From sequence record PQ826431.1: a stretch of 64,000 nucleotides of DNA; one strand, 5' to 3'. Shown here in pieces: positions 9,379 through 63,645 of the stretch. Made by a program: the position numbers and the translations under genes. The notes beneath the pieces were generated by a model, which did not search any database, was not told the origin of the DNA, and was given only the letters and a program-made list of their open reading frames with translations. How positions within the stretch are numbered: the stretch's first letter is position 1; the number at the start of each line of letters is the position of its first letter. The stretch comes from a phage.

Positions 9379-9834
9379 ATGTTCAAAGAAGGTCATGTCT
9401 ACCGTTTCCAGGATGAAGATTATATGCAATTATATTCTACCTTTGATAACAGTATGGCTGCTATCATTGGAGAGAATTTTTTCGAGGTGTTGAGCACTGA
9501 TGCAAATGGTAATATCTTGTCAATTGTTGTGATAGGGAGAGACGGTATTATCACTGCTAGTGATGGGGATCGTTACATAATCAATTCTGCTCATATAGAT
9601 TATTTTGTTGACGGTGGTATTCGTGGTGGTCGTGGAAAACCCCAAGAAGAACCTGTTGATACAACAAAAGAAGAGTGGTATGTTGTAATGACTGATGACA
9701 CCTGTATTTCTGGATTTGAAAGTTATGAAGAAGCTTTGAAAGAAGCAGCAGAGCATAAAATGGCTAATCCTACAGAAGAGGTTGAAGTTTATAAACGTTT
9801 GGTTGTTGCTACCATCGGCGTATCTTTTGTTTAA
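9379..9834 (+). CDS. hypothetical protein (151 aa)
   Basis: ORF track; RBS AAGGAG; C-terminus W-x-VV...VE-Y-R similar to preceding gene. Confidence 0.6.
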   Translation: MFKEGHVYRFQDEDYMQLYSTFDNSMAAIIGENFFEVLSTDANGNILSIVVIGRDGIITASDGDRYIINSAHIDYFVDGGIRGGRGKPQEEPVDTTKEEWYVVMTDDTCISGFESYEEALKEAAEHKMANPTEEVEVYKRLVVATIGVSFV

Positions 9835-9846
9835 AAGGGGAATGTT

Positions 9847-10284
9847 ATGTTTAAAGTTAATGCTGTTTACTGTTTCAAAAGTAAAGCTGCATGTGAAGCT
9901 TTCTCTATGATCTCTGATGAAAATTTCAAAATGGCAGCTTTGATTGAAGGGTCTTGTTTCCGCGTCGAAGATGTTAGTGAATCAGGGTCTGTTTGCTCAT
10001 TGACTTTATTGGACAGCGGGGATATTATTGAAGCTGGACAGTATCCGTTCAGGAGTTGGGAGATATTGTTAGCTCGCGGAGAGCGTAACTTTTTTATGTG
10101 CGTGTCTGCGGGGGAAATTGTGAAAGAAACTAAGGATGTTTCTGTTTACAATTCTGAATTTATAAGTTATAGTGAGTATCAACATCTGGAAGGCATTGTT
10201 GGTCACTTGTTATCTCTGATTGACATTGAATGTGACTTGCCTGAATCATTGAAAGAAGAGTTGAAAGCATTAGATCTGCTGTAA
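9847..10284 (+). CDS. hypothetical protein (145 aa)
   Basis: ORF track; RBS AAAGGGGAATG. Confidence 0.6.
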   Translation: MFKVNAVYCFKSKAACEAFSMISDENFKMAALIEGSCFRVEDVSESGSVCSLTLLDSGDIIEAGQYPFRSWEILLARGERNFFMCVSAGEIVKETKDVSVYNSEFISYSEYQHLEGIVGHLLSLIDIECDLPESLKEELKALDLL

Positions 10285-11804: not shown

Positions 11805-12119
11805 ATGTCAGAAGAACTTAAAGAATTTTATCAGGCATATCATAACTGGCTATTAGCTGGTGCTCCAGATAATAATCCTTTCTGGCATGATAAAGGATTA
11901 TGTAGTTGCCTCTACCTTTGGACTGGTGGTTACGATGATCTAAATTATGAAATGCAAATGCAATTTCGAGAAGCAGGGTTGTCTGAAGAATACCCGTTTG
12001 ATGACGGAGACTGGTTTAAATATGATTTTGCACAAAGAAACGGGCTATTGCATTTGAATGCTGCCCGTATAAAATGGGTAAAAGATCATGCTACACAGGA
12101 GGATGTGCAATGCCAATAG
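11805..12119 (+). CDS. paralog family member 3, 104 aa
   Basis: ORF track; motifs FYQAYHNWL, GLCSCL, EEYPFDDG, IKWVKDH. Confidence 0.65.
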   Translation: MSEELKEFYQAYHNWLLAGAPDNNPFWHDKGLCSCLYLWTGGYDDLNYEMQMQFREAGLSEEYPFDDGDWFKYDFAQRNGLLHLNAARIKWVKDHATQEDVQCQ

Positions 12120-12310
12120 TGTTTAGTTTCTTGATAATTGTTATGGTTGTTCTTTTCGCGGCATGGCTTTGGGATTTTGACCCAGGAGCAGCGCAGCAAA
12201 GAGCTACAGACTGGAAAGAACAATGTATTGTGCTCAAACATGAACGAAATGCGGAGAAATTTCTTGACCTAGAGTGTGATCGCCTTGTAAGATACAAGCA
12301 AGATAAATAA
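12110..12310 (+). CDS. small membrane protein (66 aa)
   Basis: track ORF trimmed to ATG after RBS CAGGAGGATG; one predicted TM helix. Confidence 0.5.
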   Translation: MPIVFSFLIIVMVVLFAAWLWDFDPGAAQQRATDWKEQCIVLKHERNAEKFLDLECDRLVRYKQDK

Positions 12311-12324
12311 CCTTGAGGTGCAAA

Positions 12325-12513
12325 ATGGTAATTGAGATTAAACTTGAATATGCTGGGGCTGTTGCTCTGATCGCACAAATGCTTGGAGCAAAGATTGAAG
12401 AAGTGTATATCAATGCCTGGAGCGTAGAGATTGATGTTCCTATGGACAACATTGCTAATCGCTTGCTGGTGGCAGAGTGTGAACGCACCAACATAATCTA
12501 CAAAGGAGCATAA
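12325..12513 (+). CDS. hypothetical protein (62 aa)
   Basis: ATG after RBS GAGGTG. Confidence 0.5.
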   Translation: MVIEIKLEYAGAVALIAQMLGAKIEEVYINAWSVEIDVPMDNIANRLLVAECERTNIIYKGA

Positions 12514-12514
12514 T

Positions 12515-12736
12515 ATGAAAATTAGAGTTTGCGATGTATTGGGTTATGTTGGTTTTGAGAATGTTCAGATTCCTTTTGTTGTTGAAGCACATCTTGTTAG
12601 CGATGATATGACAACATTCTTTGTTACGATAGAAGAAATGTCCAAAGTTGAGGGATGGGAGTGGTTTGAAGAAGATGTTTGGGAAGGTTGTGATTACGTA
12701 TTTTTCTCTGATGAAGTGAATGTTCTTTCGGAGTAG
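12515..12736 (+). CDS. hypothetical acidic protein (73 aa)
   Basis: ORF track; RBS AAAGGAGCATAAT. Confidence 0.55.
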   Translation: MKIRVCDVLGYVGFENVQIPFVVEAHLVSDDMTTFFVTIEEMSKVEGWEWFEEDVWEGCDYVFFSDEVNVLSE

Positions 12737-48204: not shown

Positions 48205-49164
48205 TTAGATTCCAATAATAGTTGCTGCTCGTTTATCCTTGGATCTGGTGTTTGCTCTACTACGTGACAAACCTCCACAAGATTCACAACGAATGATATC
48301 GAAAGAACTTACCGCAGTGTGGTATTGTTTACCAGTAACAACGTGAACGTGATCACTGCCACAACGAGAACAACGGACCTTCTCATCTGGGTAATAAGCG
48401 GATAAGTTAGGATGCTGTGGAATCCACGGAAGGATTTTCATATACAAATCACGGAGTGAAACAACATCACCATCATTGTAAATCTGCATACGTTCAAAAG
48501 CATCACGATCACCTTCACAACATGCTTTCCATAAAGGGAACCCCTCGTTATCCAGTTTTTCACTTTCTGTTTCGAAATATGCTCCCATTTCTTTAAGGGA
48601 GTTGGAAGGAAGTGCAAATTGTTTCTTAGCTGCCTTCAATGTATCAACGACTACATAATTAGAAGGAGGAGCCATATCGTGATATGCAAATCGTTGGTTA
48701 ATGTATGCACGGTCAAACTTATACCCGTTGTGTGCCACAACTACATCTGCCTCGTTCAGAAGGTTCCAAAGATCTTGGCAAAGCTCCCAATCATCTGTAT
48801 GATCAATATCAAAAAGAGGATAAGAAGACAAGTTCTTACCTTCCACTTCACCTGTATACAAATCAGCAGAAGAGTAAGATAACAAATAACCCCTACGAAT
48901 TACTTGATCTGGAGAAATGAAGGCTTTGAATCGACGGAAAGTATATGCAATCTCTGGTGCAGTTTCAACATCAATAATTTTAATAACTGGTTGTTTCTTT
49001 TTAACTGGCTCTTGTCTACTTGCTCCGAATCGTGCAAGGAAATCGTTCACTGTGCTTTTTCTTGTTGGACTACCTAAAACAATTGCTGCAATATTGCGAG
49101 AAGACATACCCTCTGCACTCATACTAAGGATATCTGCTTTCTGCTCTTCTGTTAATCTGCTCAC
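48205..49164 (-). CDS. DnaQ-like DEDD 3'-5' exonuclease with N-terminal HTH and C-terminal zinc ribbon, 319 aa
   Basis: Exo I IIDVETAP, Exo II VVAHNGYKFD, Exo III YNDGD; CSRCG/CESCGG. Confidence 0.6.
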   Translation of the reverse strand: MSRLTEEQKADILSMSAEGMSSRNIAAIVLGSPTRKSTVNDFLARFGASRQEPVKKKQPVIKIIDVETAPEIAYTFRRFKAFISPDQVIRRGYLLSYSSADLYTGEVEGKNLSSYPLFDIDHTDDWELCQDLWNLLNEADVVVAHNGYKFDRAYINQRFAYHDMAPPSNYVVVDTLKAAKKQFALPSNSLKEMGAYFETESEKLDNEGFPLWKACCEGDRDAFERMQIYNDGDVVSLRDLYMKILPWIPQHPNLSAYYPDEKVRCSRCGSDHVHVVTGKQYHTAVSSFDIIRCESCGGLSRSRANTRSKDKRAATIIGI

Positions 49165-50279
49165 TCTGCCTCCTGTTGCGAGATGTATGACTGAAGCATA
49201 CTCTCAAATGTTGTATCGTCATTATCCCAGCGTTTCATGTATACCAACTGGAAAATTGTTTCTATCCATTCATCTGTTGTCATATGGACTTCTTCTCCAT
49301 CCCAAGAAGTAAAATTAACACCATCTGGGAACCATGAGTAGTAAGTATCTTTAACTGTTTGGAAAAGTTCTGCTTGAGTTTTACAAGCTGAAAGAAGATT
49401 AAAACAAGTAATATCTCCGAACTTAATATCAAAATCTTGATAAGGTCGGATACTATCTGTTTTATCTCCCATTAGCATCTGGTATGCTAACCAGTAACTG
49501 CCCCAACCTTTAACTTCTTTCTTTTTACCTTTATCTACGATCCATATATCGCCAATAGACTCGTCAATAAGAATTATATCTGGATTTTTAAATACTCCAT
49601 CCTCTTTGTAGAAATTAAAAAGGATACTAGGAGTATGTAAACTATCTTTATCTATAGATACTACGATATAAGAAAATTTACCCGTCCTTTTATAATCTTT
49701 ATAACCTTGGAAACCATACTTCTCTAACTCATCATCAGCTTCTATTACAGTAACAACATCACCATTGTGGAACTCCACAAGATAATCTTTGGTTTCTGAA
49801 AGCTGAAGTGGTTTGATATCTAATCGTTCAGATTTATATTCTACAGGCATTTTGAAGGCGTGTCTGAAAGTTTTTCCTACGCCAATAACTCCGCAATATT
49901 TTTCTAAACGTAGATGTTTTAGAATACCTAAGACTTTTGTTTTAGCTGCTTGGAAGGTGTGTCCGATATCTTCTGGCGGGTATTGCTTATCAATGATTTC
50001 GAACTCTTCCTTTGTGAAGGGACGTTTGTTTTTGGAGGCTCTTTCTGCATTTGTATCTCCTAGCCAACCTCCAATTTTAGTCTTACTTTTACCCCAAAAC
50101 TCTGTCTTATTTTTAAATTCCTTTTGAGCACCTGAAGGGATGTGCTTCGCAATGATTGTTCTTTTCTCTAATGCAGACGCTGCTTGGAAAGCGATCTGAT
50201 CATAATCAATTGCAGCTATTGTTTCTTCGTTGACATATAAATGAAGATCTTCAGGTTTAATTAAAATATAACCGCTAAT
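49161..50279 (-). CDS. rnh: T4 RNase H-like 5'-3' exonuclease / flap endonuclease; start codon unresolved
   Basis: IAAIDYDQIAFQAAS and GDKTDSIRPY resemble T4 RNase H; conserved N-terminus lies in open frame upstream of first ATG (49850) with no ATG/GTG/TTG; 5' end placed at candidate ATT. Confidence 0.6.
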   Translation of the reverse strand: MSGYILIKPEDLHLYVNEETIAAIDYDQIAFQAASALEKRTIIAKHIPSGAQKEFKNKTEFWGKSKTKIGGWLGDTNAERASKNKRPFTKEEFEIIDKQYPPEDIGHTFQAAKTKVLGILKHLRLEKYCGVIGVGKTFRHAFKMPVEYKSERLDIKPLQLSETKDYLVEFHNGDVVTVIEADDELEKYGFQGYKDYKRTGKFSYIVVSIDKDSLHTPSILFNFYKEDGVFKNPDIILIDESIGDIWIVDKGKKKEVKGWGSYWLAYQMLMGDKTDSIRPYQDFDIKFGDITCFNLLSACKTQAELFQTVKDTYYSWFPDGVNFTSWDGEEVHMTTDEWIETIFQLVYMKRWDNDDTTFESMLQSYISQQEAE

Positions 50280-50291
50280 ATTTCCCCCTAA

Positions 50292-50501
50292 TTATTCATC
50301 GTCATCCTCTGTTGAGAATGTTTTAGTATACGGACATTGACGACTTTTCGGGATTGCTATAACTTCATCTTGGTTAGCGTTAGAATAGTAGCAATATTTT
50401 GTATTGCCATTAACTTCAGAATCAGACAAGATTAAAGTAATTTGACCTGCTGCTACTGTGAAACTAAAAGCTAAAAGAACGACTGTCAGAATCTTTTTCA
50501 T
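50292..50501 (-). CDS. small secreted protein with signal peptide (69 aa)
   Basis: ORF track; MKKILTVVLLAFSFTVAAG signal-like; RBS AGGAGG. Confidence 0.55.
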   Translation of the reverse strand: MKKILTVVLLAFSFTVAAGQITLILSDSEVNGNTKYCYYSNANQDEVIAIPKSRQCPYTKTFSTEDDDE

Positions 50502-50539
50502 AACGCCTCCTAAAAGCCTACCTCATTAAGTAGGTAGGC

Positions 50540-50568
50540 ATAATATCATAACTAATCCCGCAAGTCAA
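50540..50568 (-). promoter_or_regulatory. promoter on minus strand (TTGACT-17-TATTAT) followed by 5' hairpin
   Basis: reverse-complement reading; hairpin GCCTACCT..AGGTAGGC between -10 and RBS. Confidence 0.5.
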
Positions 50569-61602: not shown

Positions 61603-61677
61603 GGCCCTGTAGCTCAATGGGAGAGCTGTCGGCTCATAACCGATAGGTAGCTGGATCGAAACCAGCCAGGGCCACCA
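61603..61677 (+). tRNA. tRNA-Met (anticodon CAT; initiator/elongator/Ile2 not resolved), incl. CCA
   Basis: manual cloverleaf: acceptor GGCCCTG/CAGGGCC, D GCTC/GAGC, anticodon loop CTCATAA, T-arm GCTGG-ATCGAAA-CCAGC. Confidence 0.8.
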
Positions 61678-61679
61678 AC

Positions 61680-61754
61680 GTCTTTATGGTGTAATGGATA
61701 GCACAGGAGTCTTCTAAACTCTTAGTCAAGGTTCGATTCCTTGTAAAGACACCA
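61680..61754 (+). tRNA. tRNA-Arg (anticodon TCT), incl. CCA
   Basis: manual cloverleaf: acceptor GTCTTTA/TAAAGAC, anticodon loop CTTCTAA, T-arm CAAGG-TTCGATT-CCTTG. Confidence 0.8.
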
Positions 61755-61950
61755 GAACATTTTAACATGAATTAGCTCAAGTGATTTGAACCCACTACTG
61801 ATCATGGTGGCAGAGAATGAGGCAAGTATGTCAGACATTATAAACAAAGGCCACGGTTATATTAGAAGACATAAATGCTCGAAGAGCACCGTTCGTTGAG
61901 AACGGGGGTTGGTGGAGTCACCATTCATGGTAAAATGTTTTAAAAAACTA

Positions 61951-61979
61951 TTGACAACTAACATTATTTTATGTTAGAT
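61951..61979 (+). promoter_or_regulatory. promoter (TTGACA-17-TTAGAT)
   Basis: consensus -35; upstream of tRNA-Ser. Confidence 0.5.
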
Positions 61980-61988
61980 TATAAGTAT

Positions 61989-62079
61989 GGAAGGGCAAAT
62001 CGACGTGGCGACGAAAACGGTCTTGAAAACCGCCGAGCTTGAAAGAGCCTTGGGAGTTCGACTCTCCCTCCTTCCGCCA
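61989..62079 (+). tRNA. tRNA-Ser (anticodon TGA), type II long variable arm, incl. CCA
   Basis: acceptor GGAAGGG/TCCTTCC, anticodon loop CTTGAAA, variable-arm hairpin GCTT-GAAA-GAGC, T-arm GGGAG-TTCGACT-CTCCC. Confidence 0.7.
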
Positions 62080-62084
62080 GATTA

Positions 62085-62170
62085 GGTAGATTGGTGAAAT
62101 GGTAGCCACAACAGTTTGCTAAACTGTAGTCGGAAACGGCGTGTAGGTTCGAGTCCTACATCTACCGCCA
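62085..62170 (+). tRNA. tRNA-Ser (anticodon GCT), type II, incl. CCA
   Basis: acceptor GGTAGAT/ATCTACC, anticodon stem ACAGT/ACTGT loop TTGCTAA, T-arm GTAGG-TTCGAGT-CCTAC. Confidence 0.75.
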
Positions 62171-62303
62171 AGTTCTTTTTAATATAGCTTACTTTAATAG
62201 AGTAAACTTTCAGCAGATGGCCCCCCCACCATCTTACTGATAACTCATAGTTAGTGGTGTGAACACTGGCTATTTTAAAAAGAATTTTAAATATTAGTAT
62301 TTA

Positions 62304-62391
62304 GGTGAGTTAATTCCGTAGGGGTAGCGGGGCAGACTGTAAATCTGTTATCATTGCGATTCGGGTGGTTCGACTCCATCACTCACCACCA
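62304..62391 (+). tRNA. tRNA-Tyr (anticodon GTA), type II, incl. CCA
   Basis: acceptor GGTGAGT/ACTCACC, anticodon loop CTGTAAA, long variable arm. Confidence 0.7.
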
Positions 62392-62397
62392 AATTAA

Positions 62398-62483
62398 GAT
62401 GAGTTGGCTGAATGGTTTAAGCGGCGGACTGTTAATCCGTGTTCGAAAGAACGATATAGGTTCAAATCCTATACTCATCGCCA
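62398..62483 (+). tRNA. type II (long variable arm) tRNA; manual fold gives anticodon GTT (Asn), identity uncertain
   Basis: acceptor GATGAGT/ACTCATC, 3-bp D stem, anticodon stem GCGGA/TCCGT loop CTGTTAA, variable hairpin GTTC-GAAA-GAAC, T-arm ATAGG-TTCAAAT-CCTAT. Confidence 0.5.
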
Positions 62484-62490
62484 GAATTAT

Positions 62491-62567
62491 GGACTTGTAG
62501 AGTTAAGGTAAACCCCCAGTCGCCAAGAGGCTTCTGGAATTGCAGGTATCGAATCCTGCCGAGTCCC
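62491..62567 (+). tRNA. tRNA-like element with non-canonical anticodon domain (possible pseudo-tRNA)
   Basis: acceptor GGACTTG/CGAGTCC and T-arm-like GCAGG-TATCGAAT-CCTGC present, but no 5-bp/7-nt anticodon arm. Confidence 0.3.
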
Positions 62568-62686
62568 AGAAAAGAAACAGGGTCGCTCCCTGTAAGTCGT
62601 CCAACTGAAGCCCACTGCGGTGTTCCTCCTCCCACAGTTTAACTGTGTTCTGGTCAACATCAAGCATGGTTGAAGGGGCGCAATAT

Positions 62687-62762
62687 GCTTCAATAGCTCA
62701 GTTGGTAGAGCACTTGCCTTGTAAGCATGAGGTCGTAGGTTCGAGTCCTACTTGGAGCACCA
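62687..62762 (+). tRNA. tRNA-Thr (anticodon TGT), incl. CCA
   Basis: D-arm TAGCTCAGTTGGTAGAGCA, anticodon loop CTTGTAA, T-arm GTAGG-TTCGAGT-CCTAC; one T-T mismatch in anticodon stem. Confidence 0.75.
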
Positions 62763-63037
62763 ACACAACATTAAGAGCACTGTGATTGATCGTCGTATCC
62801 TGTGCACAAGGTCTGTTCGAAAGACAGTGTTCTTAGTATTGTGTTGATCACACAAAAAGAGTCACCTGAAACTTGACCGGAGTAGGGTTGGATGGGGTAA
62901 AAGAAGAAGCGGCTCTCCCATCGACAGCAACGAAGAATAATATTTGACTTTGGTTTTGTATTATTTTAAGTTAGCTTACCGAACGTAGGGCTAGTCACCC
63001 AATGGGATACTCGTCACTGTCCCACTCAATAAAACTA

Positions 63038-63068
63038 TTGACAACCAATAGTAAAATGTAGTATAGTA
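63038..63068 (+). promoter_or_regulatory. promoter (TTGACA-17/18-TATAGT)
   Basis: consensus -35; upstream of tRNA-Gly. Confidence 0.5.
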
Positions 63069-63078
63069 AAGAGGTAGG

Positions 63079-63152
63079 GCGTTCTTGGTGTAGCGGTAGC
63101 ATTCCGTCCTTCCAAGTCGGCGGCACGAGTTCGATCCTCGTAGAACGCTCCA
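63079..63152 (+). tRNA. tRNA-Gly (anticodon TCC), incl. CCA
   Basis: acceptor GCGTTCT/AGAACGC, anticodon loop CTTCCAA, T-arm ACGAG-TTCGATC-CTCGT. Confidence 0.75.
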
Positions 63153-63250
63153 AATTATTTAATAAAGGGTTGCCAGAAAACTTTCTCTTTTACTCATGGT
63201 TTTCTCCTTCTCTCACACCTCTTCTGGTTGCCCTTCATTAAATGATTTAT

Positions 63251-63326
63251 TGGTTTGTAGTGTAGTCAGGTAGCACACGACACTTTGACTGTCGTAGGTT
63301 TGGTTCAAATCCAGACAGACCAGCCA
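63251..63326 (+). tRNA. tRNA-Gln (anticodon TTG), incl. CCA
   Basis: acceptor TGGTTTG/CAGACCA, anticodon stem CGACA/TGTCG loop CTTTGAC, T-arm TTTGG-TTCAAAT-CCAGA. Confidence 0.7.
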
Positions 63327-63331
63327 TATAA

Positions 63332-63408
63332 CGGAATTTAGCTCAGTTTGGTAGAGCATACGCTTTGGGAGCGTAGGGTCGCAGGTTCGAATCCTGCAAT
63401 TCCGACCA
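63332..63408 (+). tRNA. tRNA-Pro (anticodon TGG), incl. CCA
   Basis: acceptor CGGAATT/AATTCCG, anticodon stem TACGC/GCGTA loop TTTGGGA, T-arm GCAGG-TTCGAAT-CCTGC. Confidence 0.8.
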
Positions 63409-63414
63409 ATTTAA

Positions 63415-63488
63415 TGTTTCGTAGTTCAATGGTAGAACCCACGACTGATAATCGTGAGACACAAGTTCGATTCTTGTCGAAACAACCA
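63415..63488 (+). tRNA. tRNA-Ile (anticodon GAT), incl. CCA
   Basis: acceptor TGTTTCG/CGAAACA, anticodon stem CACGA/TCGTG loop CTGATAA, T-arm ACAAG-TTCGATT-CTTGT. Confidence 0.75.
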
Positions 63489-63490
63489 AT

Positions 63491-63560
63491 TTCCCGTTAG
63501 ACTTACAGGATAAGAGTTCCACAACTTATTGTGATGCTGGTTCGAATCCAGCACGGGATA
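63491..63560 (+). tRNA. tRNA-like element with degenerate anticodon arm (possible pseudo-tRNA); no encoded CCA
   Basis: canonical T-arm GCTGG-TTCGAAT-CCAGC and acceptor TTCCCGT/ACGGGAT but anticodon region forms CACAA-CTTA-TTGTG hairpin (4-nt loop). Confidence 0.3.
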
Positions 63561-63566
63561 CCTAAT

Positions 63567-63645
63567 AGCGGGATAGAGGAGTCTGGTCGTCCTCGCCAGT
63601 TTCATATGCTGGAGATCATTGGTTCAAATCCAATTCCCGCCTCCA
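63567..63645 (+). tRNA. tRNA-Met (anticodon CAT), second copy, incl. CCA; A1-C72 unpaired
   Basis: acceptor AGCGGGA/TCCCGCC, anticodon stem CCAGT/GCTGG loop TTCATAT, T-arm ATTGG-TTCAAAT-CCAAT. Confidence 0.65.

Follow-up and report, generated by a model that had tools for sequence, protein, structure and literature searches.

Weak Start Codons in Escherichia coli and the Phage Locus

In Escherichia coli, AUA, AUC, AUU, and CUG initiate translation at approximately 1–2% of the level of AUG (0.02–3% depending on the construct), and confirmed natural AUU starts are restricted to infC and pcnB (bioRxiv 10.1101/063800). The infC start lies at the junction UAA GGU AUU, at which AUU-driven expression is approximately doubled when the upstream cistron is translated and replacement by AUG would give a 4-fold level (PMC3592434), and reinitiation requires the initiator tRNA and is depressed by an excess of initiation factor 3 (IF3) (PMC2268962). 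The present analysis deals with a gene for a predicted 5′ nuclease on the minus strand of a 64,000-nucleotide stretch of phage DNA (record PQ826431.1, hereafter the window). The window is a Phapecoctavirus (phAPEC8-like phages, subfamily Stephanstirmvirinae), and its region matches 65 genomes of that genus at an identity of 95% or more. The preferred reading, with an estimated probability of about 0.8, is that this gene starts at a near-cognate AUU codon (50279–50277) placed by a Shine–Dalgarno (SD) element, that the weak codon throttles the synthesis of the nuclease, and that reinitiation by ribosomes leaving the upstream cistron probably contributes.

The arrangement would work like that of infC and pcnB, with which it shares a conserved AUU in the place of AUG, an SD element ahead of it, and a weak start that would limit expression (10.1101/063800, PMC3592434); moreover, as in infC, the start is located a few nucleotides past the stop codon of the upstream gene. 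The differences are that this is a phage gene, that the codon varies among AUU, AUC, AUA, and CUG, which are exactly the members of the weak class of E. coli, and that the start is deduced from sequence. In addition, the gene encodes a nuclease instead of IF3, so that the autoregulatory logic of infC has no counterpart here. The arrangement is not categorically new, and the record of phage ESCO13 already carries the start as ATT; what is new is its documentation as a feature of a whole clade, including AUC, AUA, and CUG, and as the cause of systematic mis-annotation.

The Start Site in the Window

All coordinates are window positions, and nuclease residues are numbered from ATT 50279 as residue 1. 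The open frame begins at 50291, directly past the TAA (50294–50292) that ends a 69-amino-acid open reading frame (ORF) in the same frame on the minus strand, and it comprises 376 codons up to the TGA at 49163–49161. Codons 1–147 of the frame include no ATG, GTG, or TTG, the first canonical start being the ATG at 49850–49848; in-frame ATT codons are found at 50279, 50267, and 50261, and an SD-like AGGGGG occupies 50289–50284. These elements had been pointed out by a model that saw only the letters of the DNA (the sequence-only reading), and its coordinates all proved correct when the sequence was read again. It had left three explanations side by side, namely a rare start codon (ATT 50279 being the first candidate listed), a sequencing error, or deliberately throttled expression, and the evidence supports the first of them.

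The lack of canonical starts is hardly a matter of chance. ATG, GTG, and TTG together account for 5.4% of the internal in-frame codons of the long ORFs in the window, and with the internal codon usage of the window the probability of 147 successive codons without any of them is about 3 × 10−4. Among the 51 window ORFs of at least 150 codons, the nuclease gene is the single real gene with more than 27 leading codons devoid of a start. Two other long ORFs, at 9520–9981 and 12091–12543 (both minus strand), have 75 and 55 leading start-less codons, respectively, and are most likely antisense shadows, since both lie opposite tightly packed plus-strand genes.

Initiation at ATT 50279 is suggested by its position. 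The frame is closed upstream by the TAA, which is followed by the four codons TTA GGG GGA AAT, none of them near-cognate, and then by the ATT. The window contains 62 AGGRGG motifs, 45 of which precede a canonical start, 27 of these at a spacer of 4 nt, which is the commonest distance between SD and start in the window; the AGGGGG (50284..50289, AGGAGG in most relatives) is separated from ATT 50279 by exactly 4 nt, so that this ATT (50277..50279) is the first in-frame codon at the modal spacing. The other two ATT codons were considered and rejected: those at 50267 and 50261 are 16 and 22 nt away from the SD, and neither position is conserved, the relatives having AAA (locus L018 and phage 05F01) or ATC (phi92) instead. 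The proposed coding sequence (CDS) thus extends over 49161..50279 on the minus strand, with 372 codons from the ATT plus the stop TGA. No canonical in-frame start could give a functional product, as is expected for a gene that depends on a near-cognate codon.

Codon Usage at the Start Site across the Clade

The comparison covered 22 fetched loci plus the window, with amino-acid identities of 50–100%. The isolates read were phAPEC8, iGC_PHA_EC001, ASO2A, ESCO13, phi92, ESCO32, phiWec188, and the Klebsiella phages KP2025, phi1_175008, and 05F01, while the remaining loci were metagenomic contigs, down to 50% amino-acid identity. All 22 loci and the window have a strong SD followed, after 4–5 nt, by a near-cognate codon that is located 23–25 codons (mostly 23) ahead of an invariant IDYDQ motif. 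The SD is AGGAGG or AGGGGG, with AGGAG in L030. The codon is ATT in Phapecoctavirus, in its sister genus Justusliebigvirus, in 05F01, and in L015–L019 and L029; ATC in phiWec188/L009, KP2025/L014, phi1_175008, L012, and L013; ATA in L020, L030, and L031; and CTG in L028. ATG, GTG, or TTG is present at this site in no lineage of the set. In L013, an in-frame TAA directly precedes the ATC and the frame opens exactly there, hence a start further upstream is impossible in this lineage. Moreover, codon 2 encodes Ser through AGC, AGT, or TCA in different lineages, which indicates that selection on the amino acid acts from codon 2 on.

These comparisons also bear on the second option of the sequence-only reading, a sequencing or assembly error that would have removed an ATG from the window. 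Apart from the oddity of the absent start itself, nothing favors it, and it is almost certainly wrong: 64 independent phage records agree in every one of the first 50 residues of the open frame (100% identity), a tblastn probe in which Met occupied the start position matched none of the genomes of 65 Phapecoctavirus and 56 Justusliebigvirus isolates perfectly (0/121), and the diverged lineages carry ATC, ATA, or CTG at the same place. An ATG in related phages had been put forward as the observation that would speak for such an error; within the clade, whose members are independent genomes, no member has one, whereas distant subfamilies do have ATG, GTG, or TTG. The homologous start is TTG in the rV5-like phage CarlMeissner (AGGAGGgtctTTG), GTG in KB57, and ATG in CR3 and PAK_P3. 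The Vequintavirinae orthologues (rV5-like phages, CR3, and KB57) are 37–42% identical to the window protein over the full length and share its N-terminus (x-G-Y-P..., S-R-E-Y-P...) and its SD geometry, but their starts are the canonical TTG (CarlMeissner), GTG (KB57), and ATG (CR3). Four near-cognate codons at a single SD-defined site throughout a deep phage clade are therefore set against TTG, GTG, and ATG in sister subfamilies, and this makes the clade a ready comparative system for the question of how weak starts persist.

The Product and Its Start-Less N-Terminal Part

The product is predicted, from sequence motifs and a structural model, to be a 372-residue 5′–3′ exonuclease/flap endonuclease (FEN) and a divergent member of the bacterial and phage FEN superfamily, to which T5 D15, ExoIX, T4 RNase H, and the Pol I 5′ nuclease belong. 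A tblastn search with the whole open frame retrieved homologues from over 900 phage records, among them rV5-like phages, CR3, KB57, ICP1, and PAK_P3, and the alignments extend from residues 1–5 to the end. An alignment of 45 homologues shows D25, F55, R139, Y148, K149, E180, D182, D183, D210, K211, and D212 to be invariant, as well as G243, G260, Q267, D272, D275, M348, and D354. The 372-residue protein gave no match in a sequence search against PDB sequences and a profile search returned only Taq, with an E value of 0.066, and it was for this reason that a comparison of folds was needed. The AlphaFold2 model has a mean predicted local distance difference test (pLDDT) of 96 across all 372 residues and a predicted template modelling score (pTM) of 0.89. 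Fold-comparison scores were 16.8 for a plastid exonuclease (9l55), 15.0 for the Mycobacterium smegmatis FEN (6c33), 14.7 for E. coli ExoIX (3zd8), 14.3 for the T5 exonuclease (1ut5), and 13.8 for T4 RNase H (1tfr), and Foldseek was in agreement. The model displays the PIN-like α/β core with a helical arch and a helix-three-turn-helix (H3TH) region that characterize the superfamily, together with the metal-binding carboxylates, including an Asp at the end of β1, and the basic YK..R arch motif; the FRH...YK..R of the window protein aligns to FRH..YK..R of Taq.

With T5 D15, E. coli ExoIX (Xni), and T4 RNase H, the window nuclease has in common the Asp of the first strand, the YK..R arch motif, and the acidic clusters E-x-D-D, D-K-D, and G-D-x-x-D. 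However, those enzymes have 250–305 residues against 372 here, with about 212 residues superposing, and the window nuclease differs from them by a large insertion between β1 and β2, roughly residues 39–125. A second Asp of the family (Taq D67, T4 D71) is a Gly in the window protein, within GVIGVG. For T4 RNase H, with which the sequence-only reading had aligned the N-terminal region, hhalign gives a probability of only 26%, although the motifs YK..R, EADD, D-x-D, and GD..D of the two proteins fall opposite each other; the T4 RNase H sequence used was first confirmed to be identical to that of 1tfr.

The claim that the open codons upstream of ATG 49850 encode the conserved N-terminal region of the nuclease is borne out. 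Codons 2–143 (49851..50276, minus strand), which include the peptide PEDLHLYVNEETIAAIDYDQIAFQAASALEK, hold β1 with Asp25, the inserted subdomain, and the core strand β2. Between the window and ten diverged relatives, the proportion of nonsynonymous differences (pN) in these codons is 0.16–0.37 and that of synonymous differences (pS) is 0.70–0.82, with synonymous sites saturated; pN and pS are reported instead of the ratio of substitution rates (dN/dS) because this saturation blocked a proper dN/dS for most pairs. Such values point to clear purifying selection on the sequence of the start-less region. The invariant Asp25 (GAT, 50207–50205) is deep within this part, and both core strands of the model, β1 (residues 16–25) and β2 (residues 127–137), are upstream of Met144. 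The stretch devoid of starts is thus protein-coding sequence that selection maintains and that the fold cannot do without.

It is in this light that the shorter product should be judged. According to most GenBank records, translation starts at ATG 49850 (49848..49850, minus strand), the first canonical start of the frame, and the resulting 229-residue protein would be the true product, with the upstream 143 codons as an untranslated remnant. This is very unlikely. The ATG corresponds to Met144, located between the invariant R139 and Y148 and therefore inside the motif F138-R139-H140...Y148-K149..R152 (49868–49824, minus strand); it has no preceding SD, the residue is L, V, or P instead of M in other lineages, and the codons ahead of it are kept under purifying selection despite the saturation of synonymous sites. 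Moreover, a start at this ATG would deprive the enzyme of Asp25 and of two core strands.

Annotation in Public Records

The weak starts in this phage group have led most public records to annotate a truncated, non-functional protein. In most of the 65 Phapecoctavirus records, the 229-residue piece from ATG 49850 is the sole annotation, as "putative exonuclease" or "RNaseH", and in phi92 and ESCO32, of Justusliebigvirus, the annotated start is an internal GTG, with the remark "No RBS identified; weak Prodigal statistics" in the case of phi92. A truncated form, either of 229 residues or of 344/345 residues without the catalytic Asp, is present in most of the records inspected and probably in most of the approximately 120 phAPEC8-like and phi92-like genomes. 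The RefSeq entry of ESCO13 (NC_047770.1) already annotates the identical 372-residue CDS from ATT, plus a ribosome-binding site (RBS) feature, and the genome announcement of this phage is silent on the ATT start (PMC5374246). A literature search for this start codon, or for ATT/AUU starts in phages, retrieved nothing specific.

The gap left by the truncated gene is filled with other calls in at least two records. In phAPEC8, a small "hypothetical protein" CDS (G377_gp266) is placed in another frame within the start-less stretch, at window positions 49928–50050 (minus strand), and in Klebsiella phage phi1_175008 two small antisense CDSs occupy it (L025 475–840); these gap-filling CDSs are probably spurious. 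The correct length of the nuclease product is about 372 residues. Several of the phAPEC8-like and phi92-like phages are candidates for phage therapy.

The Junction with the Upstream Cistron

The 69-amino-acid ORF upstream of the nuclease gene (50292..50501, minus strand) contains a predicted signal peptide, and its phi92 homologue, gp086, carries a SignalP annotation in the record. Its stop TAA (50294–50292), which borders the SD, precedes the ATT by 12 nt, so that the ORF is a candidate partner for termination–reinitiation coupling. In every lineage with upstream sequence available, an upstream stop is found 1–20 nt before the start. This stop borders or overlaps the SD (TAGGAGG, TAA-TTAGGGGG) irrespective of which gene precedes the nuclease, L019 having a methyltransferase gene there and L028 an HNH gene. 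Both genes are on the same strand and the stop is within about 20 nt of the downstream start, as in coupled pairs, and the regular presence of such a stop suggests that the nuclease start is coupled to the upstream ORF.

In the window, the two ORFs share a frame with a single TAA between them, and a protein database holds a 444-residue "fusion" entry, so that stop readthrough or a programmed frameshift from the 69-amino-acid ORF could be thought to produce a fusion protein. This origin of the nuclease is extremely unlikely. The frame offset between the upstream ORF and the nuclease is 0, 1, or 2 depending on the lineage, L013 has two in-frame stops, and the upstream gene is a different one in L019 and L028; moreover, with the signal peptide upstream, a fusion would export a replication nuclease. 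No conserved frame relation with a recoding signal, as programmed recoding would show, was found across the lineages compared. As to the 444-residue entry (P0005, L014 601–1935), it has Gln where the contig has TAG, at the junction of the two ORFs, and cannot be translated from the contig under code 11; it was discarded as probably the outcome of a gene caller that picked an alternative genetic code on account of the long start-less ORF.

A closer alternative is that the near-cognate start is used mainly or only through reinitiation, in an obligatory coupling in which the weak codon would be tolerated and not selected as a throttle. The upstream stop next to the SD in every lineage is what this account expects, and the doubling of AUU-driven expression by coupling at the infC junction (PMC3592434) is in line with it. 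Nevertheless, the strong SD is kept in all lineages, indicating that de novo binding of the 30S subunit matters too, short intergenic gaps are usual across the compact genome and the proximity is perhaps unspecific, and overexpression of IF3 also lowers reinitiation (PMC2268962), so that discrimination against the codon would remain. Obligatory coupling is given somewhat worse than even odds.

Proposed Mechanism and Weight of the Evidence

In the preferred reading, the nuclease would be translated by ordinary, SD-directed initiation, with fMet-tRNA on the AUU at 50279–50277. The AGGGGG, at the usual spacing of the phage, would position the ribosome, and the initiator tRNA would pair with AUU through a third-position mismatch. 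Start codons of the AUU class reach just a few per cent of the initiation rate of AUG and are discriminated against by IF3, so that the codon by itself could throttle the translation of a nuclease that is potentially harmful. Ribosomes that end the 69-amino-acid ORF would probably add some reinitiation. Overall, the start would be weak, sensitive to IF3, and coupled in part, and it would hold the dose of the nuclease low.

That the weak codon has been selected for low expression is suggested by the complete lack of ATG at the site, even though any AUH codon is one mutation away from ATG and saturation has been reached at synonymous sites. The throttling mentioned as the last option in the sequence-only reading is consistent with the keeping of weak codons clade-wide. 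A broader proposal, which is put forward only tentatively, is that a clade of large coliphages and Klebsiella phages, the Stephanstirmvirinae and their uncultured relatives (to 50% identity), has an obligatory near-cognate start in its replication FEN gene, with a codon that drifts among AUU, AUC, AUA, and CUG without ever becoming AUG, GUG, or UUG, and that this start provides an IF3- and ppGpp (guanosine tetraphosphate)-sensitive, coupling-dependent control of dosage or timing for a dangerous nuclease. If true, these would be the first natural, evolutionarily validated AUC, AUA, and CUG starts in the E. coli system. As a comparative system, the clade also bears on whether phages employ weak starts to dose toxic nucleases or to sense the translation state of the host (IF3, ppGpp).

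Several observations weigh against the preferred reading or parts of it. Three distant lineages (L019, L020, and L030) carry an ATG 9 codons downstream that could be a substitute start, although it is without an SD, and between L019 and L020 four of the nine preceding codons differ, synonymously only. In phiWec188/L009, an ATT immediately precedes the ATC, so that the exact codon is ambiguous there. Taken alone, the statistical case for selection against ATG is weak, due to the few independent codon changes and the shared ancestry of the lineages, and independent events are too few to test the throttle formally. The window protein reaches no Pfam threshold, and its Pfam search gave nothing relevant, with no match to PF02739 (5_3_exonuc_N) at E ≤ 1; precomputed PF02739 matches do exist for the distant homologues P0035 and P0073–P0084. 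No significant RNA structure (fold z = −0.25) and no other special signal were detected in the start region, and the explanation by an RNA switch was dropped because of this value. Finally, the literature yielded no published proteomic or ribosome-profiling data for these phages, and no N-terminal peptide.

The phage tRNAs were also inspected for an initiator adapted to AUH codons, and none was found, as the tRNA-Ile (GAU) and both tRNA-Met (CAU) lack the three G–C pairs of the initiator anticodon stem. The window has a cluster of 10 tRNA genes at 61603–63645 (plus strand), in the order Met, Arg, Ser, Asn, Thr, Gly, Gln, Pro, Ile, and Met. One of the two tRNA-Met (CAU), at 63567–63645, has an unpaired A1/C72 atop the acceptor stem, which is initiator-like, but it lacks the three anticodon-stem G–C pairs, and the unpaired 1:72 position does not explain the decoding of AUH.

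Neighboring Genes

The signal-peptide ORF, the FEN gene, and the gene of a DnaQ-like 3′–5′ exonuclease (48205–49164, minus strand) lie in a row as closely packed cistrons, and the last of them starts at a GTG (49162..49164) that overlaps the FEN stop as GTGA. The small predicted secreted protein is conserved, with 64–70 residues and an acidic C-terminal tail (...DDE), and it is encoded inside a replication/recombination block (rdgC-like, FEN, and DnaQ-like genes); its label in KP2025, "pili assembly chaperone", looks doubtful. In CR3, KB57, and one metagenomic lineage, this ORF is replaced by an HNH endonuclease gene directly upstream of FEN (L004 91–591, L007 119–556, and L028 1–433).

Upstream of the 69-amino-acid ORF, a promoter-like TTGACT-17-TATTAT with a TG before the −10 element (50540..50568, minus strand) is recognized by its match to the consensus only, and no terminator-like site was found between it and the FEN gene. 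It overlaps a hairpin, GCCTACCT...AGGTAGGC followed by TTTT (window 50509–50568, minus strand), which is annotated in phage ASO2A as the terminator of the rdgC-like gene. Thus, the terminator of the rdgC-like gene and the next promoter appear to be interleaved just upstream of the 69-amino-acid ORF.

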